Positions 8,126 through 22,263 of a DNA stretch of 64,000 nt are shown piece after piece (the stretch's first letter is position 1; every line of letters begins with the position of its first letter). The DNA comes from a virus. Under the pieces are notes generated by a model. It saw only the letters and a list, made by a program, of their open reading frames with translations, was not told the DNA's origin and did not search any database. Location of the stretch: positions 32,001 to 96,000 of IMG/VR virus record IMGVR_UViG_3300045988_126619; one strand, 5' to 3'. The position numbers and the translations under genes are program-made.

Positions 8126-8137
8126 ATACAGTCACCT

Positions 8138-8713
8138 CTAACACATTATTTTATCTATTACTCCTAATTCTAACGCAGTTTCTGCATCAAAGAAGAAGTT
8201 TTCTTTTCTATCATATATTTCGTTGATACGTTCACGTGGAATTTTTGTAAGCTTTGCATAATAATCAGCGGATTTCTCCCAAAGTTTCTTTTGAAATTCA
8301 ACTTCTCTTTCAAATTCCTTTAGTTCTCCACCTTGTCCAAATGATGTTTGATGTAATAGATATTGACTTAATCCATATCCAATACGTTCATCACAATGAA
8401 TTATTATGTCAAATGCCATTGAATAAGCAATAGATTCAACTACACCAATAACCTTTATTTTATGTTTTTGTAATCTCTTAATATTACCTATAATAGCATT
8501 ACCATGAATAACACTTCCACCATATGAGTTAATTAATAATGTAACTGTTTTTATTTTTTTATCTTTCATTCCTAAACTATCGTAAGATTTATTATTCTCA
8601 ATAATTTTGTTAGCATAATAAGAAACTGCTACTGCCATTTCCTCATTTACTACACCATTTAAATATATTCTGCCTTGATTTGCGGAAGCGTGTTCCATCT
8701 CCATTATATTCAT
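8138..8713 (-). CDS. ClpP-family serine protease
   Basis: INSYGGSV, SIAYSMAFD (Ser) and LLHQTS (His) match the ClpP signatures INSPGGSV / HQP. Confidence 0.75.
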   Translation of the reverse strand: MNIMEMEHASANQGRIYLNGVVNEEMAVAVSYYANKIIENNKSYDSLGMKDKKIKTVTLLINSYGGSVIHGNAIIGNIKRLQKHKIKVIGVVESIAYSMAFDIIIHCDERIGYGLSQYLLHQTSFGQGGELKEFEREVEFQKKLWEKSADYYAKLTKIPRERINEIYDRKENFFFDAETALELGVIDKIMC

Positions 8714-9980: not shown

Positions 9981-10286
9981 TTATTTATAATATGATAAAT
10001 CTATTCTCATTAATCTCTCATTTAAAAATTCTTCATCTACTGCAAACCATTCATGATTATCTAAAATTCTTCTACTATTCAACATTGTATGAAGATGTTT
10101 CTCCAATAATTTATAATTTGAACATTGAATTTTAGTTAAAATCACTAATTCATCATTTATTCCATTAAATTTAAAGGAACGTTGTATTTGCTTAAATCTA
10201 TTGTCTATATTCTTTGAGCATCCAACTTTAATAACCATTTTGTCTTTAGTTGATTTTGTTTTATTTATAATAATATAAACGCCCAT
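9981..10286 (-). CDS. T5orf172 / GIY-YIG-like small nuclease-domain protein
   Basis: MGVYIIIN..IKVGCSKNIDNRFKQIQ pattern. Confidence 0.55.
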   Translation of the reverse strand: MGVYIIINKTKSTKDKMVIKVGCSKNIDNRFKQIQRSFKFNGINDELVILTKIQCSNYKLLEKHLHTMLNSRRILDNHEWFAVDEEFLNERLMRIDLSYYK

Positions 10287-10622
10287 TTTTACTTTCTATT
10301 ATATAAACAAATATTGTATCTATTACAATTTTATATTCAAATGTCCATTAAACAACTTTCTCACCTTTTAATTAATTCACCATTTAAAACCAAATTGATA
10401 AATTGTAATAAATAATTATAACTTGTACTCTAAAAAATAATATATTATTTGTAAGCTGTAACCTGTTATTTTGTCTGCATTACTTTTTCCTAAAAATTTA
10501 TTTTTTTAACTTGTTAGAATTTTACTTTACCTAATATAGTATATGTAAACAAGCTAGGAGCATTTATAAAAACACTCCTATCAAGCTACAGTAACAGAAT
10601 ACAATATTTGTTATAAACTATT

Positions 10623-11129
10623 TTATATTTCTACAAAAGTAGTTGCGTTAACCTGTTGAATAAGTGTTTCTAAATCTGATATTTCATCAACTAAAGATTG
10701 TTTTTCAGCTTTAATAACATCTATATCATAGTTTAGGTCAACTACTCTATAATATGAACTACTTCCATTTCCATCAAATTTCCTGCTCAATGAAGGTGCT
10801 TTACTAGACAAAGTTTCAAATAGTTCCAATTCTTTTCTCAAACTAGAAACCGTATTGATAGCTTCAATAATAGTCATATCTTCTTTGACTTTAACAGTTG
10901 CGTTCATTTTAGCTAATATATTTTTATATTTTGTCAATGTATTTAATTCTGATTTATATTTTGATAAAACCTCTTCAAAGTCTTTCACATCTACTAAAAC
11001 TTGTTCAGTTCCATCTAATTCTCTATCTTTTGTTATTGTACAATTGTTCATTACATCATAACGTAATGCACTCATGTCTTTTGATTTTTGATTAATAATC
11101 AATAATAAATTTGATAATGTTACTCTCAT
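10623..11129 (-). CDS. coiled-coil hypothetical protein
   Basis: Track ORF trimmed to ATG 11129, preceded by AAAGGGGAA. The upstream part of the track ORF overlaps a separate small gene. Confidence 0.55.
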   Translation of the reverse strand: MRVTLSNLLLIINQKSKDMSALRYDVMNNCTITKDRELDGTEQVLVDVKDFEEVLSKYKSELNTLTKYKNILAKMNATVKVKEDMTIIEAINTVSSLRKELELFETLSSKAPSLSRKFDGNGSSSYYRVVDLNYDIDVIKAEKQSLVDEISDLETLIQQVNATTFVEI

Positions 11130-11842: not shown

Positions 11843-13297
11843 TTATAATTCTATTGTGAAATCTAATTCTGAAACAAAAACCTTTGTAGTTCTATTATTT
11901 TCAGATAACATATCTTCTAATTTTGCTTTTAATTCTTCTTTTGCTTCATCTTCACCGTGCATCAAAACTACTTTATTACAATTGCATTGTTTAATATAGT
12001 TTATCAAATCTGTTTGGCTTGCATGAGAACTAAAAGTATTAAATCTTCTAATATTACAATGTTTGATTAATATATCTTTTTTATCAAATTCAACCTTATC
12101 AAGTGTTTCATCTAATATTTGCCCACCTATACAATTAGGAGAACAATAACCACAAAATAATATACTAGAATTAGTTTGTCCTAATAATCTATGAGCATGA
12201 AGTGTACTTCTTCCTCCACTAATCATCCCGCTACTAGATAGTATTACTGCTTGCTGTTTTTTACTCATGAAAGCGATACTAGCATCATAACTATCTATAA
12301 ATTTAAAACATTCCCAATTAATTACTTGTTTCCAATATTCTAATTCTTCACCTTCTAAAATAGAGAATAATGCTTTATTTATTTTACATCCCAAATTTGT
12401 ATCAATAACAATTGGTATTTCTCTATTCCAACTATCTTTAAATGTATCATATAGATAACACATTATATTTTGAAGTCTGTGTTGAGCGAATACTGGAATT
12501 AATACAGAACCATTTCTGTCTAACGTTTGAATGATTTCTTTTTTAAATTCTTCACGTTCTCTTATACAGTCCTGTTTAGTGAAGTTTCTATCACCTTTAC
12601 CATAAGTAGATTCTAAAAATACAACATCTGCTTTAGCTACATTAATAGTAGGTTTAACAAAATAATTAAATTGGAAATTATCAGTATTACCTAAATCTCC
12701 CGAAAACAATATCTTTTTAACAGTATTTGTTCCATATTTTTTAATATATAAAACCAACTGTGTTGCTCCCATCATATGGCTATTATCTACATATTGAAAA
12801 GAAACATATTCGTCAACTTTAATTATTTCATTCATAGAAACTTCTTCTATTTTATCTAATACTTTCCACATATCTTGAGTTGTATATAGTGGTTTACATT
12901 TCTTTCCTGTTTGTTTTAAATATTTACAATCATCTTCATGTATTTTTGTTCCATCTTTCAACATTACTGGTGCTATAGTTTTATTTGCATTATTCATAAA
13001 TATTTTTCCTGCAAATTCTTTTACATTTAAATAAGGTAATCCTCCAACATGGTCTTGGTGATTATGTGTTACAAAAACATATTCAGCATATTTAATTGGT
13101 ATGTTTTCAAACATCTTTTTATTGTCCATATATTCATCCCATTTAGAACCACCTTGACAAGTTCCTAAATCTACTAATAAATGTTTTCTACCTTCTTGTG
13201 TCATGTAAGACACCATTGTACATGAACCTGTTACTTGGTGACTTTGTGAGCCACACGTAATACATATGATTTTATTATCTTTCCTCTTTTTACCCAT
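11843..13297 (-). CDS. MBL-fold beta-CASP nuclease (RNase J / CPSF / Artemis-like)
   Basis: HNHQDHVGG (HxHxDH) in the N-terminal third. 484 aa, matching the beta-CASP architecture. Confidence 0.75.
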   Translation of the reverse strand: MGKKRKDNKIICITCGSQSHQVTGSCTMVSYMTQEGRKHLLVDLGTCQGGSKWDEYMDNKKMFENIPIKYAEYVFVTHNHQDHVGGLPYLNVKEFAGKIFMNNANKTIAPVMLKDGTKIHEDDCKYLKQTGKKCKPLYTTQDMWKVLDKIEEVSMNEIIKVDEYVSFQYVDNSHMMGATQLVLYIKKYGTNTVKKILFSGDLGNTDNFQFNYFVKPTINVAKADVVFLESTYGKGDRNFTKQDCIREREEFKKEIIQTLDRNGSVLIPVFAQHRLQNIMCYLYDTFKDSWNREIPIVIDTNLGCKINKALFSILEGEELEYWKQVINWECFKFIDSYDASIAFMSKKQQAVILSSSGMISGGRSTLHAHRLLGQTNSSILFCGYCSPNCIGGQILDETLDKVEFDKKDILIKHCNIRRFNTFSSHASQTDLINYIKQCNCNKVVLMHGEDEAKEELKAKLEDMLSENNRTTKVFVSELDFTIEL

Positions 13298-13380
13298 AAC
13301 AAAAATTCCTCCACACTCTCCTTAATAGTAAATAGGAATCTTTGTTTTAGATAAAAGTTTCTCTATTTATCTATTAATAA

Positions 13381-13408
13381 ATAAAAAGGGTAGTCTTATC
13401 AACTACCC
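13381..13408 (-). terminator. rho-independent terminator
   Basis: GGGTAGT-7-ACTACCC followed by a T-run on the minus strand, just after the HU-like gene. Confidence 0.6.
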
Positions 13409-13424
13409 TAATTTAAACAATAAA

Positions 13425-13730
13425 CTATCTGTTTACTGCTGATGTTTTCTTTATCTTTACAACTTCCTTTGCAGGTGCTGTATGTGCAGGATATGTTACT
13501 CCATTTAATGTTCTTTCTGGAACTTCCTTTTCATCTTGCATTACTTTTTCTACTCTGATATAAGAACCTAATTTAATTCCTTCGTCTACTCCTAGTCTAT
13601 CTATTACTGCATCTACAACTACATCAAAATTAGCAACAAAATCTTCTGCTGATTTCTTTGTTTTTAGTTCTAATGCTTCCTTTACTACGTCTACTAATAC
13701 TTCTTTCTTTAATAACTCTACCTTTGCCAT
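13425..13730 (-). CDS. HU/IHF-family DNA-binding protein
   Basis: About 100 aa. The helix-helix-beta-arm layout is colinear with bacterial HU, with a KK..A...V..F start and an arm with P. Confidence 0.7.
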   Translation of the reverse strand: MAKVELLKKEVLVDVVKEALELKTKKSAEDFVANFDVVVDAVIDRLGVDEGIKLGSYIRVEKVMQDEKEVPERTLNGVTYPAHTAPAKEVVKIKKTSAVNR

Positions 13731-13783
13731 AATTCTTTTTCTCCTTTTCGTTTCTTAGATTTTTTATTATTGTTTATTTTATT

Positions 13784-13826
13784 TCGGTGTCACAGGAATT
13801 GAACCCATGTACGTGCCTACACACCG
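13784..13826 (-). ncRNA. tRNA-like minihelix (acceptor stem + T arm only)
   Basis: CGGTGTG-11 nt-ATGGG-TTCAATT-CCTGT-GACACCG-A. No D or anticodon arm. Confidence 0.4.
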
Positions 13827-13881
13827 ATGTTTCCTTTATTTATAAAAAAACAAAGGAATAAATACATGAACTTTAACACGT

Positions 13882-13954
13882 TGGAAATTATAGGACTTGA
13901 ACCTACATCTCTCCGACTACTACGGAGTGCTTTCACCAGTTAAACTAAACTTCC
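13882..13954 (-). tRNA. tRNA with anticodon GUA (Tyr-like) and atypical loop
   Basis: Full cloverleaf: GGAAGTT/AATTTCC, D arm GTTT..AAGC, anticodon arm CTCCG-TAGTAGT-CGGAG, T arm GTAGG-TTCAAGT-CCTAT. A at position 33, short variable arm. Confidence 0.65.
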
Positions 13955-14040
13955 ATATAAATCCTATTTCTTTTTCGTCTGTGTGAAATAGGTAAATGTC
14001 ACCAGTATACTATAATATATTATCAAGGAGGTGTTTATTA

Positions 14041-14092
14041 GGGAAATCAAGGAATCGAACCTCTTTTAATGTTTAACCATAAACAATTTCCC
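14041..14092 (-). ncRNA. D-arm-less tRNA-like element (pseudo-tRNA?)
   Basis: GGGAAAT / TGTTT-ATGGTTA-AAACA / TTAAA / AGAGG-TTCGATT-CCTTG / ATTTCCC. 52 nt. Confidence 0.4.
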
Positions 14093-14128
14093 ATGTTAAA
14101 AGATAAGAAATTAATCTTACCTTAATAT

Positions 14129-14203
14129 TGGCGAGGATAGGTGGAAGTCGAACCACCGTTCACAGGTTAACAGCCTGTTGTTCTACCATTGGACTATATC
14201 CTC
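14129..14203 (-). tRNA. tRNA-Asn (GUU), CCA encoded
   Basis: GAGGATA/TATCCTC acceptor, ACAGG-CTGTTAA-CCTGT, GGTGG-TTCGACT-TCCACC. Confidence 0.9.
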
Positions 14204-15111
14204 ATATTATTATCTTTGAAGGCTTTTAGATTCTATCCTTCTTCTTGACTTTCAGAAGACTTACTGTCTATCTCCCTTATCCACTAACTCATGCTAGTAT
14301 CAAGAAATGCCTGCTATTTTATATACCGTTAGCTTTTACGGTCTACTAATATACTACTCTACAGTTCGCATTATACTTGCCTTGCGAGCAATTAAGGATT
14401 GGCTAAATCCAAATACGCTGTTCCTTATAAAGTAATTAAGTCCTTGCGAGAACTCCATTACACTTTGTTACATCTCTGCCAAAGTATTAAGACACTTTCG
14501 TATATTAGGAAGAAGAATTTTCGCTTTAGTTATTTGTATTTCAAATAAAATATGATATCCTCAATCATCACTTAAATCTGCTATATTCTTCTTAACTTTT
14601 CCAAACAGAAGTCACATCTTCTTAGTTGTTTCCTTGCCTTTTGAGCAAAGCTATACAACAGCGACTTCGATGCTTTCACTCAATTTATAAGTTACTAACG
14701 GTTCTATAAGATACTTTAGGATACTCCCTATTTTTCTTATACAACTGGTTATCGCACTTGTGTAAATTTCACTCGTACTATTTAACCTTACACTTTAGAT
14801 TTTCCATTTCACTAGTTTAGCGTGAACTATCCAATTGCTAGTTGGAAGATTTCATTCTTTGGTTATTCCATTACTCTCTTGTCATTCCTAGCTTATAGGA
14901 CTTTACCATATTGCTGACTATATTTTCACTTAACCAATATGATAAACATTTAAATCTTGTGTATTGCTTGAATTGACCATAAATGGCGAATGGTTGTTAG
15001 CCACCCTTTACATATATTACTATATGCTATCTGTGTCAAGCCACAATACGCACCTATATTAGTGTACCAGTTACTTTTATTTTAAAGAGTTAAAGTAACA
15101 AACTTTCTTCT
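14204..15111 (-). ncRNA. candidate very large structured ncRNA (GOLLD/ROOL-like context)
   Basis: 908 nt with no ORF of 60 aa or more on either strand. Abutted by tRNA-Glu and tRNA-Asn on the same strand. Less AT-rich than its surroundings. Local hairpins and GNRA-type loops are present. Confidence 0.5.
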
Positions 15112-15186
15112 TGGTACTCCATAGCAGAATTGAACTGCTGTCTTCACCGTGAAAGGGTGATGGCTTAACCACTTGCCTAATGGAGC
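15112..15186 (-). tRNA. tRNA-Glu (UUC), CCA encoded
   Basis: GCTCCAT/ATGGAGT, TCACC-CTTTCAC-GGTGA, GCAG-TTCAATT-CTGC. Confidence 0.9.
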
Positions 15187-15202
15187 ATATTAAAAGATTT
15201 TA

Positions 15203-15276
15203 TGGAGCAGTAATCGAGAATCGAACTCGAAACTTCGGGTCGGAAGCACGACATTTTACCATTAAACTATTACTGC
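15203..15276 (-). tRNA. tRNA-Gly (UCC), CCA encoded
   Basis: GCAGTAA/TTACTGC, anticodon loop CTTCCGA, TCGAG-TTCGATT-CTCGA. Confidence 0.85.
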
Positions 15277-15320
15277 TCGTTTTATCTTTCGTTATTATTT
15301 TTCTGTTTCTCTTTCGTTCT

Positions 15321-15413
15321 TGGCGGAGAATGTAGGATTCGAACCTACGATACCCTATTTAAGAGTATGACAGATTAGCAATCTGCTGTCTTAAACCACT
15401 CGACCAATTCTCC
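15321..15413 (-). tRNA. tRNA-Ser (GCU), class II long variable arm, CCA encoded
   Basis: GGAGAAT/ATTCTCC, GCAGA-TTGCTAA-TCTGT, long variable arm, GTAGG-TTCGAAT-CCTAC. Confidence 0.9.
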
Positions 15414-15615
15414 ATATTAATTACTCATAAAATAACTTCTCCTAAAAAGAGTGACATATTTCAGCCACTCTAAAAAGGAGAGTATTAATTATGAAAGAGA
15501 GGTATAAAAATTGAAAAGTTTGACCTCGAAAGGTCAATGGTATAAAAACTTTTTTAAAGTTATTATCTTTTGTTATTTGATAATTTCACCATTGGTTTAT
15601 TATCACTTTTTCTGT

Positions 15616-15630
15616 TATTGTTTATTTTAT
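15616..15630 (-). promoter_or_regulatory. conserved motif variant upstream of the tRNA cluster
   Basis: ATAAAATAAACAATA on the minus strand, about 200 nt upstream of tRNA-Ser. The leader contains a UUCG-capped hairpin TTGACCT-TTCG-AGGTCAA (15518-15535). Confidence 0.5.
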
Positions 15631-15730
15631 GTTTGAAAAGAGAACCTATAAACTACTATCTGTTTCTCGTTCTCTTTTCACAATACAACTTTCAAAATGC
15701 CTATAAACCGCACCATTGAGCCATTCTTTG

Positions 15731-15783
15731 AAAAAATAAAAAAGTAGCACACCCTTCAACCCTAGTGTTCATGCGGGTTTGCT
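15731..15783 (-). terminator. rho-independent terminator after the GIY-YIG gene
   Basis: AGCAAACCC...GGGTGTGCT stem followed by a long T-run on the minus strand. Confidence 0.55.
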
Positions 15784-15803
15784 GGGATTTCAAAATCAAA
15801 CAA

Positions 15804-16244
15804 TTATTTTTCATTTAGCACGTATATATTCTTTTCTTTCAATAATAACAATACGGTTTCTAAATCTTCTTTTCTTATTTTTATTCTAATATATTCTTTA
15901 TGATTATTAAAATTGTATTCATATAATTCTTGATTATATATATTTTTTTTATATATATTAATGTAAACCCTTTCTTTAATATTTAATTCTTCTTTGCTAA
16001 ATGCGTAATCTACATTTTTATATACTTCAAAATTTTTAAACCCATATTGTTCTATATCATTGATTAATTCATCATTACTTCTTTTTTCTCTTCTTCTAGT
16101 ATTATAAAATTTTTCAATGTCACTAAATCCTTTACCTCTATACCTTCCATTAAATCCATTCTTATTAGAAGTTTTTCCTATATATACCTTATTGTTTATT
16201 TTATTTACAACTTTGTATATTACTCCATATATTTTATTTTTCAT
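15804..16244 (-). CDS. GIY-YIG homing-endonuclease-like protein
   Basis: IYGVIYKVVNKINNKVYIGKT...GRYRG. Start moved to ATG 16244 (GGAGAAGGGA RBS). Overlaps the RNAP gene end by 11 nt. Confidence 0.7.
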   Translation of the reverse strand: MKNKIYGVIYKVVNKINNKVYIGKTSNKNGFNGRYRGKGFSDIEKFYNTRRREKRSNDELINDIEQYGFKNFEVYKNVDYAFSKEELNIKERVYINIYKKNIYNQELYEYNFNNHKEYIRIKIRKEDLETVLLLLKEKNIYVLNEK

Positions 16245-19122
16245 TCCCTTCTCCTTTCCTTCTAGTTCTATTATCAATTGTTTTTTCTATATTGACTTTT
16301 TTTGAACATTCATTACAATATTTTTGTCTAGGACTATTACTTTTAAACCTTTCTCCACATTCATTACATATCCTGTATCCTTTTTCTAATGACTTATAAT
16401 CAATGTTATCATTTATATTATTTATTATAGTATCACCAAATACATTAAATATAAATGTAAGATTATTTTCATGATTTAAAAAAGCATCCTTTACAATATA
16501 GTCAACCATGTCATTATAATCTATTCCTTTTTCTTTAGCATATATAATGAAAGATTCTTTTGCATCTATATATACATCTGTTTTTATATCACTTTTTGTT
16601 GTTGCATTTTCCTCTGCTTTCGCTCTTGTTCTTATCTTATCTTTAGTTTGACTTTCTATTTCTTCATATTTAGTTAATACAAAAGCTAAGTCTTTTACAT
16701 TTTTATTATGCAACAATGTTTCTAATTTAAATGTTCCAAATCCTTTCTTATAACTAAATCTTTTATATTTAACATGGTCTATACTTTTACATATTCTATC
16801 TATAACACCATTTCCTATTTCTCTACATTCATTATCTTTTTTATCTTTAGCAAATTTAAAGAAATGTGGATAATCATTATTATTCATTAACTGCTTAATA
16901 TCTTGTGGCAATCTTGGAAGTTCTAATTTTTTAGCAGAATCAATAATCCAGTTATTATATGCACATAATTTCTTTATTTCATCTTCTTTATCTTCATATC
17001 TATGTTGAGAAGTTATATTAGTAAGAGTATTAGAAACTTTACCTATATTAGATTTCTTATATACGAACTCTAATGATTTGAATATATTATTAATAGTTAA
17101 TTGTTTAGCTTCACCACCACCCATTTCATAGTACAATGGTCTAATATCTTTCATTTGTTCTTCTGCTAAATCTAACAACCATTTTTGCTTTGCATTATCC
17201 TTTACTACTAAAGCTTCATCACCATCCCAATCGCACATAAGAACTAAACTCATAAAATCTTTTGCAGAAACATATATAGCCTTAGTATTAAAGTAATTTG
17301 ATTTAGTATTACTAGCCTTATTCTTAGCCATAAACCATTCTCTACTTAAATGTGGACTTCTTAATAATGCCAATCTTTCACTATCTTTATATTCTTCAAA
17401 ATAAACTTCATTTGCTTCTAAATAATAATCTGAACCATCCCCAAATAATAAACTTGAAAAATGTATTAAATCTGGAATTATAAAAACTCTTTTTGCATTT
17501 AAATCTATTCTTCCACTTTTTGCATCTTTTCTATAGCTTGCTAAAACATCACGAACTTGATTTTTTACATATTTACTTGTAAGCATTTCTGGATATAACA
17601 TTAATGCAGTTTGGAAATTATTTTTTCTTTTATTTGATTTTGTAGCAGATAATAATTTTAATTGAGAATCCCTATCTACATGAACATCTTCTATTAATTT
17701 CTTAGTGTCGGCAGTTAAATATTCTATTTGTTCATCTGTCATATCTGTAAGAGTTTGCAACATCTGATAGTTAATATTCATATCCTTTAATCTTGGTTCA
17801 TCTTGCATACATATATTAAATGTGCAATTATATTTCTTAAAGTTTTCCTTATATTCATCCCAATCTTTATAATATTTCCATAACTTGAATTGAGATTTTG
17901 TGAATATTATTTGTATATCATCTTCTACAACATCATATTCTTTTCCATATATATCTTTTACTTTTGTAGATAAATTATTTTCTTTTATATATCTTAAATA
18001 GTTGAATGGACATACTAAACCTTTAAACCAAGGTAATCTTATTTGTGTGTTCTTTTTAAATATTTTAGTAAGACAAATTCCTGCTCCATCCATGAAATCT
18101 ATAGATATATCCATAACTTGTCTAGTTATTTCCCAATCAGTCTTATATACTGTTTTAGTTCTAACACCATTTTCATCATATACACATTTCTTTTCATCTA
18201 AAATTTTATCATCTCTGCTAATATAATCAACTTCACCTCTTATTAATGAAGAATAATCATCAACTACTATACATTTATCAATATCAAAATCTTCATATAT
18301 TTCAGATGCAGAATTGTTAAGACTTAAATAAGCACAGAACTTGTTTGCGTTCATACCTCCCATTTCATTTATTTTATCTATAGTAAGACCACACATTAAA
18401 TGTTTTTCTGTAGTTTCCCATAAATCTTCTTTAATCATCATGAATTTCTTTTGTCTAGTTTGTCCTGCTCCTGCTGTAAAGAATTTATATCTATATTCAT
18501 TACTAGATATTAATTCTCCTGTTTCTTCATCTATTTTTTCATCAACTATAGTAATACCATTTTTAATTACTTGTTCTGTAATTATCATATCAGTATTTCC
18601 TACTTCCATTACTATAAAATCTAATGTTGGTTTATTTTCATCAGCTAATTCTAATCCCAATTCTTGTTTTCTAGCTTTTATAGTTCTTATTGTAGCGTTA
18701 TCAAAAAATGTTATTTCATTCTTTATTCTAAAATCTTTAGTATATACAGTTCTGAATTTATTTTTCTTAATCTCTTCCTTTATTTTATGTGTCACGTCTG
18801 CATATTCTTCTTTTACTTCGCTATATACTAAAGTTTCTTCTGTAATAATAGTTTCTTTTTTACCATTAATCCATTTAATAGTATCAATTTCAATAGTAGT
18901 AGGAACTTCTTCTAATTTTTTCATATATTCTTTACGTTCTTCTGTAGAAATTTCTTCTCCTAAATCCTCATTTACAATTTCTTTATGTTTCTTTTTTAAT
19001 AAATAAGTTCTGTGATTTAATTGATATTGTAAATTATATAATTCTTTTTCATATTCAGTTTTTGTTAATCCTAATCCAATAGAATATAATTTTGTTTGTT
19101 TATTCATAGCCATATTTTTCAT
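16234..19122 (-). CDS. candidate single-subunit two-barrel RNA polymerase (YonO-like)
   Basis: LLRSPHLSREW followed about 45 aa later by MCDWDGDEALVV (17218-17232). This mirrors beta-prime NRAPTLHR...NADFDGDQMAVH. 962 aa with a C-terminal CNECG..CNEC zinc ribbon. Confidence 0.6.
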   Translation of the reverse strand: MKNMAMNKQTKLYSIGLGLTKTEYEKELYNLQYQLNHRTYLLKKKHKEIVNEDLGEEISTEERKEYMKKLEEVPTTIEIDTIKWINGKKETIITEETLVYSEVKEEYADVTHKIKEEIKKNKFRTVYTKDFRIKNEITFFDNATIRTIKARKQELGLELADENKPTLDFIVMEVGNTDMIITEQVIKNGITIVDEKIDEETGELISSNEYRYKFFTAGAGQTRQKKFMMIKEDLWETTEKHLMCGLTIDKINEMGGMNANKFCAYLSLNNSASEIYEDFDIDKCIVVDDYSSLIRGEVDYISRDDKILDEKKCVYDENGVRTKTVYKTDWEITRQVMDISIDFMDGAGICLTKIFKKNTQIRLPWFKGLVCPFNYLRYIKENNLSTKVKDIYGKEYDVVEDDIQIIFTKSQFKLWKYYKDWDEYKENFKKYNCTFNICMQDEPRLKDMNINYQMLQTLTDMTDEQIEYLTADTKKLIEDVHVDRDSQLKLLSATKSNKRKNNFQTALMLYPEMLTSKYVKNQVRDVLASYRKDAKSGRIDLNAKRVFIIPDLIHFSSLLFGDGSDYYLEANEVYFEEYKDSERLALLRSPHLSREWFMAKNKASNTKSNYFNTKAIYVSAKDFMSLVLMCDWDGDEALVVKDNAKQKWLLDLAEEQMKDIRPLYYEMGGGEAKQLTINNIFKSLEFVYKKSNIGKVSNTLTNITSQHRYEDKEDEIKKLCAYNNWIIDSAKKLELPRLPQDIKQLMNNNDYPHFFKFAKDKKDNECREIGNGVIDRICKSIDHVKYKRFSYKKGFGTFKLETLLHNKNVKDLAFVLTKYEEIESQTKDKIRTRAKAEENATTKSDIKTDVYIDAKESFIIYAKEKGIDYNDMVDYIVKDAFLNHENNLTFIFNVFGDTIINNINDNIDYKSLEKGYRICNECGERFKSNSPRQKYCNECSKKVNIEKTIDNRTRRKGEGNEK

Positions 19123-20744: not shown

Positions 20745-20950
20745 CTACTCGAAATATGGACAAATATACCCATATTGAGATTTTTTACTGTTTCTTCGTA
20801 TCTCATTTTGTTCTATAGAACTACTTTGATTTGATATAATACTCCACAGTCGTAAATTCCCGACTAGCCATCGGTACATATCTATAATCACTTATTTTAT
20901 GCTATATTATAGATTTTTGCATCTCTCAAATTAAGACTTGCATTATAATC
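20745..20950 (-). ncRNA. candidate TnpB omega (re)RNA
   Basis: GC-richer structured stretch spanning the tnpB 3' end and downstream. It has CCGA-TGGCTAG-TCGG and GTCG-GGAATTTA-CGAC hairpins and the palindrome GTTCTATAGAAC. Boundaries are approximate. Confidence 0.4.
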
Positions 20951-22102
20951 TCTATCCTCAACGTACCCACATTCACATTTGTATATCCTATCACTAAGTT
21001 TTAAATCTTTCTTTATAGAACCACATTCATGACATAGTTTACTTGAAGGATAAAATCTATCAACAATTCTTAATTCAATTCCTAAAGCATTACATTTATT
21101 TGTTAACTTAGTTCTAAATTCATAAAACTTTTGTTGTGCTACTGCTTTAGATAAATGCTTATTCTTCATCATTCCTTTTACATTTAAATCTTCTATTGTA
21201 ACATAAGATGGTTTGTTTCTTATCACATCAGCTACAACTTTATTTATGTAATCAGTTCTTATATTTGTAAGTCTTTGGTGAAGTATTTGTACCTTAACTA
21301 TTTGTTTATGTATATTTTGTCTAGTAGCAACTCCTTTCTCTTTTTTATTTCTTATTTTTAAACTTTCATATTTCCTTGAGAGCTTTTTTTGTTCTCTTAA
21401 TAATTTCTTTTCTAATCTTTTAACTCTTTGAGTTTTATTTATATTTTTGTAATTTATTTTATTACTACAAATAGCAAAATCTTTAAGACCTAAATCAATA
21501 CCTACACCACAAGTATATTGCTTATTATCTATTGTTGGATTAACGTCAATAACTACTGACACATAATATCTATTAGCTTTTTTAGATACAGTTCCGCTAA
21601 CAACTTTTGCACTAACTGGAATATACCCATATTCTTTTAACCTTACATTCTTTAAAGTAGGTATCATTATTCTATGTCTGTCTACTTTCCAATCGCCTTT
21701 ATTATTTTTAGGAAAGTATATTTTAACATCAGATTTATTTTTCTTTTTAAATCTAGGAAATTTAGATTGACCTTTGAAGAATCTTTTGTATGCAGTTTCA
21801 GCATTTTGAATAGCTTTCTTTCTAGCTTTAGAACCACAATTATTTATCCATGTATATTCTTCTAAAACTTTAACTTCATTATTTATATATTTGTCAAAAT
21901 CATTAGCTGACATAAACGCTTGTTTTTTATCAATACAACCATCTTTGAATTGGTTATATAATTCATTATTTTTAGCCAAATATTCATTATACAACCATCT
22001 ACAAACTCCGATACTTTGATTAATCTTTTGTATCTGTTTTTGTGTTGGTTTTATTTCTACTTTGTAAGCTTTTAATCGCTTATCATTTATTCTGTGTTTC
22101 AT
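20897..22102 (-). CDS. tnpB: TnpB RNA-guided endonuclease (IS605 OrfB family)
   Basis: RuvC triad context GIDLGLKDF, IEDLNVKGM, DRDYNASLNL. Zinc finger CHECGS...CECG. Start set to ATG 22102 (AGAGGTG RBS). Confidence 0.85.
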   Translation of the reverse strand: MKHRINDKRLKAYKVEIKPTQKQIQKINQSIGVCRWLYNEYLAKNNELYNQFKDGCIDKKQAFMSANDFDKYINNEVKVLEEYTWINNCGSKARKKAIQNAETAYKRFFKGQSKFPRFKKKNKSDVKIYFPKNNKGDWKVDRHRIMIPTLKNVRLKEYGYIPVSAKVVSGTVSKKANRYYVSVVIDVNPTIDNKQYTCGVGIDLGLKDFAICSNKINYKNINKTQRVKRLEKKLLREQKKLSRKYESLKIRNKKEKGVATRQNIHKQIVKVQILHQRLTNIRTDYINKVVADVIRNKPSYVTIEDLNVKGMMKNKHLSKAVAQQKFYEFRTKLTNKCNALGIELRIVDRFYPSSKLCHECGSIKKDLKLSDRIYKCECGYVEDRDYNASLNLRDAKIYNIA

Positions 22103-22263
22103 ATTAATATCACCTCTTGAGTATATATTAACACATTCAAACACATTTGTCAACATTTTTATTAACTATTTTATCTCTCCTTTATAATTAATTTTATGTG
22201 GCTAGATATAATTTCTAACCACATTTATATCTTATCATTTATTTTATGTTCTATATACATTAT

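Follow-up and report, generated by a model that had tools for sequence, protein, structure and literature searches.

GOLLD is among the few natural RNAs that build protein-free cages. The family corresponds to Rfam RF02032 (Weinberg et al., 2009, cited in PMC12286853). As published, it has a conserved 3′ domain and a variable 5′ domain, is of phage origin, and is located in tRNA islands (PMC12286853; PMC12990946). Cryo-EM has shown that GOLLD forms RNA-only dihedral cages, which have been solved with 10, 12 and 14 copies (PMC12286853; PMC12990946). The env-38 GOLLD (PDB 9MEE, 833 nt) is a 14-mer, and the GOLLD of Streptococcus agalactiae (9L0R, 700 nt) is a 12-mer, of which the 3′ domain alone gives mainly a 10-mer. 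In these cages the 3′ domains make up the ring; the 5′ domains serve as caps and fix the copy number, and the linker points inward (PMC12286853; PMC12990946). The role of GOLLD is described in the literature through associations only, with phage lysis and with tRNA arrays (PMC12286853; PMC12990946).

The locus described here lies within a 64-kb stretch of viral DNA (the window, to which all positions refer unless another record is named). A sequence-only reading had proposed that the gap between two tRNA genes holds a giant structured RNA, either of the GOLLD or ROOL kind or of a new class. The suggestion of GOLLD is borne out by a full-length match to RF02032, and that of a new class is not. 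We conclude, with a high degree of confidence, that the minus strand of 14204–15111 encodes a single complete two-domain GOLLD RNA. This conclusion is based on the homology of both domains to GOLLDs that score above the Rfam cut-off, on the retention of the family secondary structure through many compensatory changes, on natural variants that preserve the structure, and on the context of a phage and a tRNA array. The RNA is a divergent new member of a class that is itself already known. There is no Clostridium entry in the part of the GOLLD alignment of Kretsch et al. covered here, and a literature search gave no paper linking GOLLD to Clostridium phages, although both of these are weak evidence of absence.

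The locus and its tRNA array

The features of the locus are collected in Table 1. The boundaries of the gap are as claimed: with both ARAGORN and Rfam, tRNA-Glu ends at 15112 and tRNA-Asn begins at 14203 on the minus strand, leaving exactly 908 nt. The array region contains six minus-strand tRNAs, namely Ser, Gly, Glu, Asn and Tyr, with Trp farther along (ARAGORN, Rfam). No ORF of 60 aa or more is present on either strand from 13731 to 15803, as the earlier reading had stated, the longest being 51 aa overall and 49 aa within the gap. The gap is also less AT-rich, as had been noticed, with a GC content of 0.327 where the window as a whole has 0.264. A GC content as high as this is reached by only 2.6% of 908-nt windows, and the GC maximum of the 64 kb falls within the tRNA/RNA block.

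Table 1. Features of the GOLLD locus and its neighbours, in the order in which they are read on the minus strand.
Feature	Position	Strand	Evidence	Remarks
YonO homologue, 962 aa	16234–19122	−	33–37% identity, phrog_8308	just upstream of the tRNA/GOLLD array
tRNA-Ser(GCU) and tRNA-Gly(UCC)	15203–15413	−	ARAGORN	upstream in array; varies among near-identical phages
tRNA-Glu(UUC)	15112–15186	−	ARAGORN; Rfam tRNA, 65.8 bits	3′ end adjoins start of GOLLD unit
67-nt leader, tRNA-Glu to 5′ domain	15045–15111	−	nhmmer match begins at query position 68	
GOLLD 5′ domain, ~375 nt	14670–15044	−	nhmmer; RNAalifold	
Helices P14/P15 (published numbering, our mapping)	14607–14669	−	Rfam alignment, pair count	first two helices of 3′ domain
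A/U-rich unpaired linker	14510–14606	−	Rfam alignment	23-nt insertion
3′-domain core	14220–14509	−	RF02032 match, helices, covariation	
Unstructured spacer before tRNA-Asn, 16 nt	14204–14219	−	fold energy 0 kcal/mol	3-nt deletion tolerated (L027)
tRNA-Asn(GUU)	14129–14203	−	ARAGORN, Rfam	directly 3′ of GOLLD
tRNA-Tyr(GUA)	13880–13955	−	ARAGORN, Rfam	downstream in array
β-CASP/RMMBL metallo-β-lactamase-fold protein, 484 aa	11843–13297	−		RNase J/CPSF-73 type

Several local elements had been picked out by eye. The duplicated module CUCGCAAGG is found at 14450–14442 and 14388–14380, with CUUAAUU following the first copy and preceding the second. In the Rfam alignment both copies are hairpin loops of the GOLLD 3′ domain, and the duplication is also seen in two other GOLLDs (L010 and L011). 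GNRA-type loops are likewise present, for example GUAA at 15020–15017 and GAAA in ACGAAAGU. The hairpin at 15070–15099 is correctly placed, formed by GTTACTTT (15099–15092) with AAAGTAAC (15077–15070), but its stability is similar to that of shuffled sequence (z = −0.44).

A transcript start near 15630, which had also been proposed, is unsupported. Promoter-like matches occur at the chance level (18, against 15.1 expected in shuffled sequence), with one weak match at 15652–15624. No terminator-like site was found inside the array, the nearest on the minus strand being at 13387–13409, past a 101-aa ORF.

The spacers after tRNA-Asn and tRNA-Tyr each contain a tRNA-like minihelix on the minus strand (14041–14092 and 13786–13827 respectively), consisting of a 7-bp acceptor-like stem and a T-arm-like hairpin with the loop GGUUCGAUUCC or GGUUCAAUUCC. 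Neither minihelix is called by either of the tRNA tools. The first has z = −2.69 when folded within 14036–14128. Possible explanations are that these are decayed tRNAs or that they act as signals for processing.

Identification of the 3′ domain

An Infernal search with Rfam models, as the sequence-only reading had advised, matched the minus strand of 14220–14669 to positions 1–416 of the 416 in RF02032, with a score of 110.1 bits and an E value of 1.5e-29 in a 2-kb search, or 4.5e-28 in the 64-kb window, where it was the top match. A scan at the curated Rfam thresholds reports nothing in the 908-nt gap, because the score is below the gathering cut-off for RF02032 of 150 bits; this cut-off is an annotation threshold rather than a structural feature, and among the defining features of GOLLD that could be assessed it is the only one that the window lacks. 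The criterion for GOLLD used by Kretsch et al. is a cmsearch E value below 1e-5, which is surpassed here by more than 20 orders of magnitude.

The 3′ domain has 450 nt and 34% GC. All 15 of its helices are present, including a 10-bp long-range helix (14509–14500 with 14354–14345). Standard base pairs are formed at 88 of the 98 consensus pairs, 42 of them with both nucleotides changed relative to the consensus, and the other 10 are non-standard. The window is identical to the family at 91 of the 131 highly conserved positions of RF02032.

Covariation was found in both halves of the RNA. The 3′ domains of 17 GOLLDs (the window and one of its variants, gut-phage GOLLDs, env-38 and a further two from IMG/VR) were aligned with MAFFT on sequence alone, and the structure was projected onto the result. 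In this alignment 74% of cells are paired, compared to 36–54% when partners are slid by 1–3 columns, a comparison that favours the 3′ structure because the structure was taken from the window's own Rfam fit. Changes on both sides are seen in 43 of 69 pairs, compared to 12–27 in the slid controls, only the first 69 pairs being counted because the final third of the MAFFT alignment is misaligned.

The signature motifs of the 3′ domain align across the 17 GOLLDs. The P14/P15 region carries the conserved loop UCAAAAG (14644–14638), in which CAAAA is invariant in all 17. The motifs of the core (14220–14509) are ACGAAAG..UAAU, two CUCGCAAGG hairpins, AGAGUAG, GUGGAUAA and a terminal hairpin. The linker at 14510–14606 was searched with ARAGORN for an embedded tRNA, and none was found.

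Natural variants

Variants of the locus were collected by exact look-up of the adjacent 101-aa protein, which gave ten contigs. In three of these the intergenic region is identical to the window; those that differ are L027 and a group of five (L030–L033 and L036). The β-CASP gene is highly diverged in the L030 group, and the upstream tRNA set is altered in both L027 and the L030 group. Despite these differing flanking genes and tRNA sets, the 908 nt are 99.1–99.7% identical among the variants.

Comparison of the window with L027 and L030 gives 10 differences in 908 nt (7 substitutions and 2 deletions, with the paired 14272/14258 counting as one). All of them either fall at unpaired sites or retain the pairing. 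The unpaired sites are in the loop of the leader hairpin (15085), the linker (14571, 14539 and 14531), a bulge (14274) and the 3′ spacer (14211–14213). At the paired sites, 14272 G>A together with 14258 C>U is a double change from G-C to A-U, and U-A becomes U-G through A>G at 14285 and again at 14813.

The tRNA array is an exchange hot spot surrounding an almost invariant GOLLD (cf. 15112–15413). The tRNAs upstream of GOLLD are Ser-Gly-Glu in the window, Ser-Gly-Tyr-Glu in L027 (3757–4620) and Ser-Thr-Tyr-Cys-Glu in L030 (4038–4603). L027 has a 103-aa ORF inserted in the array, and neither L027 nor L030 has the GIY-YIG endonuclease gene (15804–16277 in the window) among its gene calls.

These variants bear on the suggestion that the window carries a decaying remnant, homologous to GOLLD and no longer selected or functional. 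In favour of a remnant, the match is below the gathering cut-off, there are changes at some conserved nucleotides and in one A-rich loop, and closer relatives of the neighbouring proteins are found without any GOLLD. Decay is however hard to reconcile with the retention of 90% of the consensus pairs, 42 of them by double changes, with two domains of full length, and with a sequence that is almost unchanged among variants having different flanks and differs among them only in structure-neutral ways. We therefore regard a remnant as improbable, and a complete GOLLD as the better description.

Relatives and the 5′ domain

GOLLDs have a second, more variable domain of ~300–420 nt adjoining the 3′ domain on its 5′ side. 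Rfam models only the conserved 3′ domain, and relatives were therefore needed to interpret the upstream 442 nt. A motif pattern for the 3′ domain returned 14 loci from IMG/VR, all of them GOLLDs (159–218 bits), and three unrelated GOLLDs in MAGs from a genome collection. A pattern for the 5′ domain returned 15 loci from metagenomes; L048, L049, L050 and L053 were dropped as chance matches within ABC-ATPase-like coding sequence. A relaxed version of the 5′ pattern gave no additional loci in IMG/VR. With blastn, the 908 nt gave a single 44-nt match to the 14 IMG/VR GOLLD loci, and the region gave no match to 50,697 GenBank phage records. With blastn showing almost no similarity to the window, nhmmer was required.

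The nhmmer query was positions 68–418 of the 5′ half, equivalent to 15044–14694. It matched 10 of the 14 IMG/VR loci (E values from 4e-11 to 1.5e-9) and ten of the metagenome loci (1e-12 to 5e-10), with three truncated loci matched more weakly. A third lineage was provided by GenBank MT835469.1, a 176-kb phage from human faeces, which has a 3′ domain of 172.6 bits and a 5′-half match with an E value of 3.7e-12. The matches, to GOLLDs of human-gut phages, are collinear and fall on the sequence that directly precedes the Rfam 3′ domain. The blocks common to the window and its relatives are UGGCUUGACA, AGAUAGCAUAU, UAUGUAAAG, GUCAAUUCAAGCAA, AUAGU..GAG and one near GCGAUA.CCA.

RNAalifold predicted 93 pairs in the 5′ domain from 13 sequences of the three lineages. 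The fraction of cells paired is 96.8%, compared to 34–43% in slid controls, and 32 pairs are changed on both sides, compared to 2–7; this test favours the structure, for which the same alignment had served as the basis of prediction. An invariant helix, GCUUGA (15041–15036) with UCAAGC (14971–14966), encloses a cluster of three hairpins, and further conserved helices follow downstream. The GNRA hairpin of the cluster (15027–15010) has the loop GUAA in the window and GUGA in the relatives. In the window we count about 75 standard pairs among the 93, and about 18 that are non-standard. Three of the predicted helices, for which the gut lineage is the main source, are not retained in the window, which may be an alignment error or a true difference.

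The leader (15045–15111) contains the A/U-rich hairpin at 15070–15099, and gut-type GOLLDs have no counterpart to it. In MT835469.1 the equivalent place is taken by a leader of 56 nt.

The 5′ region of env-38, which comprises P1–P13 in the published architecture, gave (in a sequence lacking 18 nt) no significant nhmmer match to the 5′ domain or to its profile. This agrees with the published view that 5′ domains are the variable part of GOLLD. It could also be taken to mean that GOLLD is represented here by its 3′ half only, and that an unrelated spacer, or else a different and new RNA joined to it, makes up the 5′ ~440 nt, particularly as Rfam covers the 3′ domain alone and has no match to the 5′ half, which when folded by itself has a modest z of −2.54. 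This explanation has very little to recommend it, given that positions 68–418 are collinear with the 5′ segments of above-cut-off GOLLDs in three lineages and that 32 pairs covary in the 5′ half.

The arrangement tRNA-GOLLD-tRNA recurs among the relatives. In most gut-type loci the 5′ domain starts about 6 nt past a tRNA or tRNA-like sequence, and a tRNA of varying identity is found 12 to ~47 nt past the 3′ domain. One relative (L011, GOLLD at 8137–8588, 218 bits) has a tRNA-like match of 38.9 bits in its linker (8202–8270) and lies in a 13-tRNA array; it is an instance of the embedded-tRNA variant known from the literature.

A different large RNA, whether ROOL, a group I or II intron, RNase P RNA, tmRNA or a new class, can be set aside almost completely: the size and tRNA context would fit ROOL as well, but permissive Rfam searches of the region and the window gave GOLLD only, besides tRNAs and RAGATH-18, with no match to the ROOL, intron, RNase P RNA or tmRNA models at E = 10 (13700–15850) or E = 0.01 (whole window), and ARAGORN found no tmRNA. 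There is equally next to no likelihood that the stretch encodes small proteins, since its ORFs of 31–49 aa do not reach 60 aa, its conservation is accounted for at the RNA level, and changes between lineages keep base pairs and not reading frames.

Phage, host and gene neighbourhood

The window belongs to a ~160-kb SPbeta-like phage or prophage of Clostridium butyricum. This assignment follows from the flanking phage genes and from the annotation of proteins that are at least 90% identical, which occur in a C. butyricum assembly (locus tags PMX22_158xx, on a 155.5-kb contig) and also in records labelled ‘Caudoviricetes sp.’ (contigs of ~159.5 kb). The 962-aa protein is 33–37% identical to YonO, the single-subunit RNA polymerase that the Bacillus phage SPbeta encodes, and to homologues in phages of Clostridium, Enterocloster and Thomasclavelia. 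In the phage variants the YonO homologue is present in versions of 959 or 1021 aa. Other flanking phage genes encode a GIY-YIG homing endonuclease, a UvrD-like helicase and an exonuclease.

The β-CASP protein is a predicted RNA nuclease beside the tRNA/GOLLD array, and as such it could have a role in processing. An identical protein has a weak precomputed match to the anti-Pycsar Apyc1 family.

The order YonO-like gene, GOLLD between tRNAs, β-CASP gene (11843–19122) is complete in one other locus, L051 (3284–9078), with proteins 31–32% identical to those of the window. The YonO side only is found in L008, L012 and L015, and the β-CASP side only in L054 (5862–9252), L020 and L013 (29–31% identical). 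The closer relatives of the neighbouring proteins (47–55% identity; L001, L004, L022 and L023) have no GOLLD nearby, and none was found in IMG/VR within 8–10 kb of the YonO relatives (L001–L007) or the β-CASP relatives (L022 and L023). In L023, which has the β-CASP homologue of 47% identity, two other RNA motifs associated with phages, skipping-rope (66.5 bits) and drum (63.8 bits), lie just downstream (9984–10901).

The window also contains a TnpB protein (IS605 OrfB/Cas12f-like, 419 aa; 20897–22156, minus strand), with a RAGATH-18 RNA of 71.4 bits directly downstream (20785–20850). The pair resembles a transposon-associated nuclease together with the scaffold of its guide RNA, carried within the phage. 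A megablast search with 25 kb gave short matches only, at this element, and these DNA matches were to Clostridium phage c-st and Lactobacillus brevis phages.

A more speculative proposal is that the window GOLLD and its gut relatives form a subfamily fixed in a conserved module of SPbeta-like gut-Firmicute phages, composed of a YonO-type polymerase gene, tRNA-GOLLD-tRNA and a β-CASP/RMMBL nuclease gene, and that the monomer, excised by tRNA-processing enzymes, works with the polymerase or the nuclease, for example in keeping hold of phage tRNAs, in shielding them or in tying up host RNases. Taken together, these two suggestions are unlikely to hold.

Proposed processing and assembly

The residues that make contacts in env-38 were re-anchored by motif in our own alignment, because the env-38 text is short by 18 nt. 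By this motif alignment, the window keeps the UCAAAAG loop, whose As are responsible for an A-minor bridge in env-38, and the UC of the first CUCGCAAGG loop and the GA in the linker flank, which make a kissing contact. It also keeps the GC dinucleotides in two neighbouring hairpin loops, which make symmetric kissing contacts in env-38; the second CUCGCAAGG module is one of these two loops. As the contact motifs are mostly kept and an AUGA loop differs, the window GOLLD is likely, by analogy with env-38, to form a cage, with a copy number that we place no more precisely than 10 to 14.

The following sequence of events can be envisaged. GOLLD would be co-transcribed with the tRNA array, as suggested by the lack of a terminator-like site between the array and 13387–13409. 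Its 3′ end would be made by RNase P cleavage at tRNA-Asn and its 5′ end by 3′ processing of tRNA-Glu, a route to which the recurrent tRNA sandwich in the relatives points. Between 10 and 14 of the monomers would then come together as a closed dihedral cage, with the 3′ domains as equatorial ring, the 5′ domains as caps and the A/U-rich linker facing inward. GOLLD would presumably act in the lytic growth of its ~160-kb phage.

Significance

The window copy leaves knowledge of the GOLLD class unchanged. It is an ordinary member, and its value is practical. Our results indicate that the 150-bit Rfam cut-off overlooks genuine intact GOLLDs in AT-rich clostridial phages. The recurrent tRNA-flanked layout suggests how the ends of GOLLD form, and the analysis identifies genes that recur beside GOLLD, for a YonO-like RNA polymerase and a β-CASP nuclease. 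C. butyricum is culturable and open to genetic engineering. GOLLD is thereby placed in a phage of a culturable host, and deletion and induction work becomes feasible. Should the module proposal be true, C. butyricum would be the first genetic system for probing GOLLD function.

Comparison with known systems

ROOL resembles GOLLD in being a large phage RNA located by tRNA islands and in forming RNA-only cages. Its sequence and fold are unrelated, and it has no Rfam match in the window. The mycobacterial GOLLD in horizontally acquired tRNA clusters has tRNAs on both sides, as in the window, and a homing endonuclease gene is nearby in both cases, HNH in the mycobacterial locus and GIY-YIG in the window (PMC6582537). 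The mycobacterial linker has a (pseudo-)tRNA inside it, unlike the linker of the window (PMC6582537).

The gut-phage GOLLDs (the IMG/VR and metagenome loci L008–L021 and L039–L052, and MT835469.1) have a 5′ domain of the same type as the window and, like it, tRNAs directly on both sides. They score 159–218 bits, compared to 110.1 for the window, and their 3′ domains have no blastn-level similarity to that of the window. Most of them are without a leader, unlike the window. Hairpin 3 of their 5′ cluster ends in a GAAA loop, and in the window this hairpin is shortened.

The window differs from env-38 in having 908 nt between its tRNAs, which is longer than the 833 nt of env-38, and a 67-nt leader. 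The 5′ domains of the two cannot be aligned by sequence, although by eye they have the short motif GGCUU(U)GACA..AAUUCAA in common. In env-38 an inter-shell A-minor contact is made by a hairpin loop for which the family consensus is A-rich; the window has AUGA there (14292–14289). The architecture of the 3′ domain is nevertheless the same in the window as in the env-38 and S. agalactiae GOLLDs, with UCAAAAG, ACGAAAG..UAAU, the CGCAAG loops, AGAGUAG and GUGGAUAA in common. All three have an unpaired linker past the first two helices, which in the window corresponds to the linker that is disordered and faces inward in env-38, and a separate 5′ domain of ~400 nt, and all three are located in the tRNA array of a phage.
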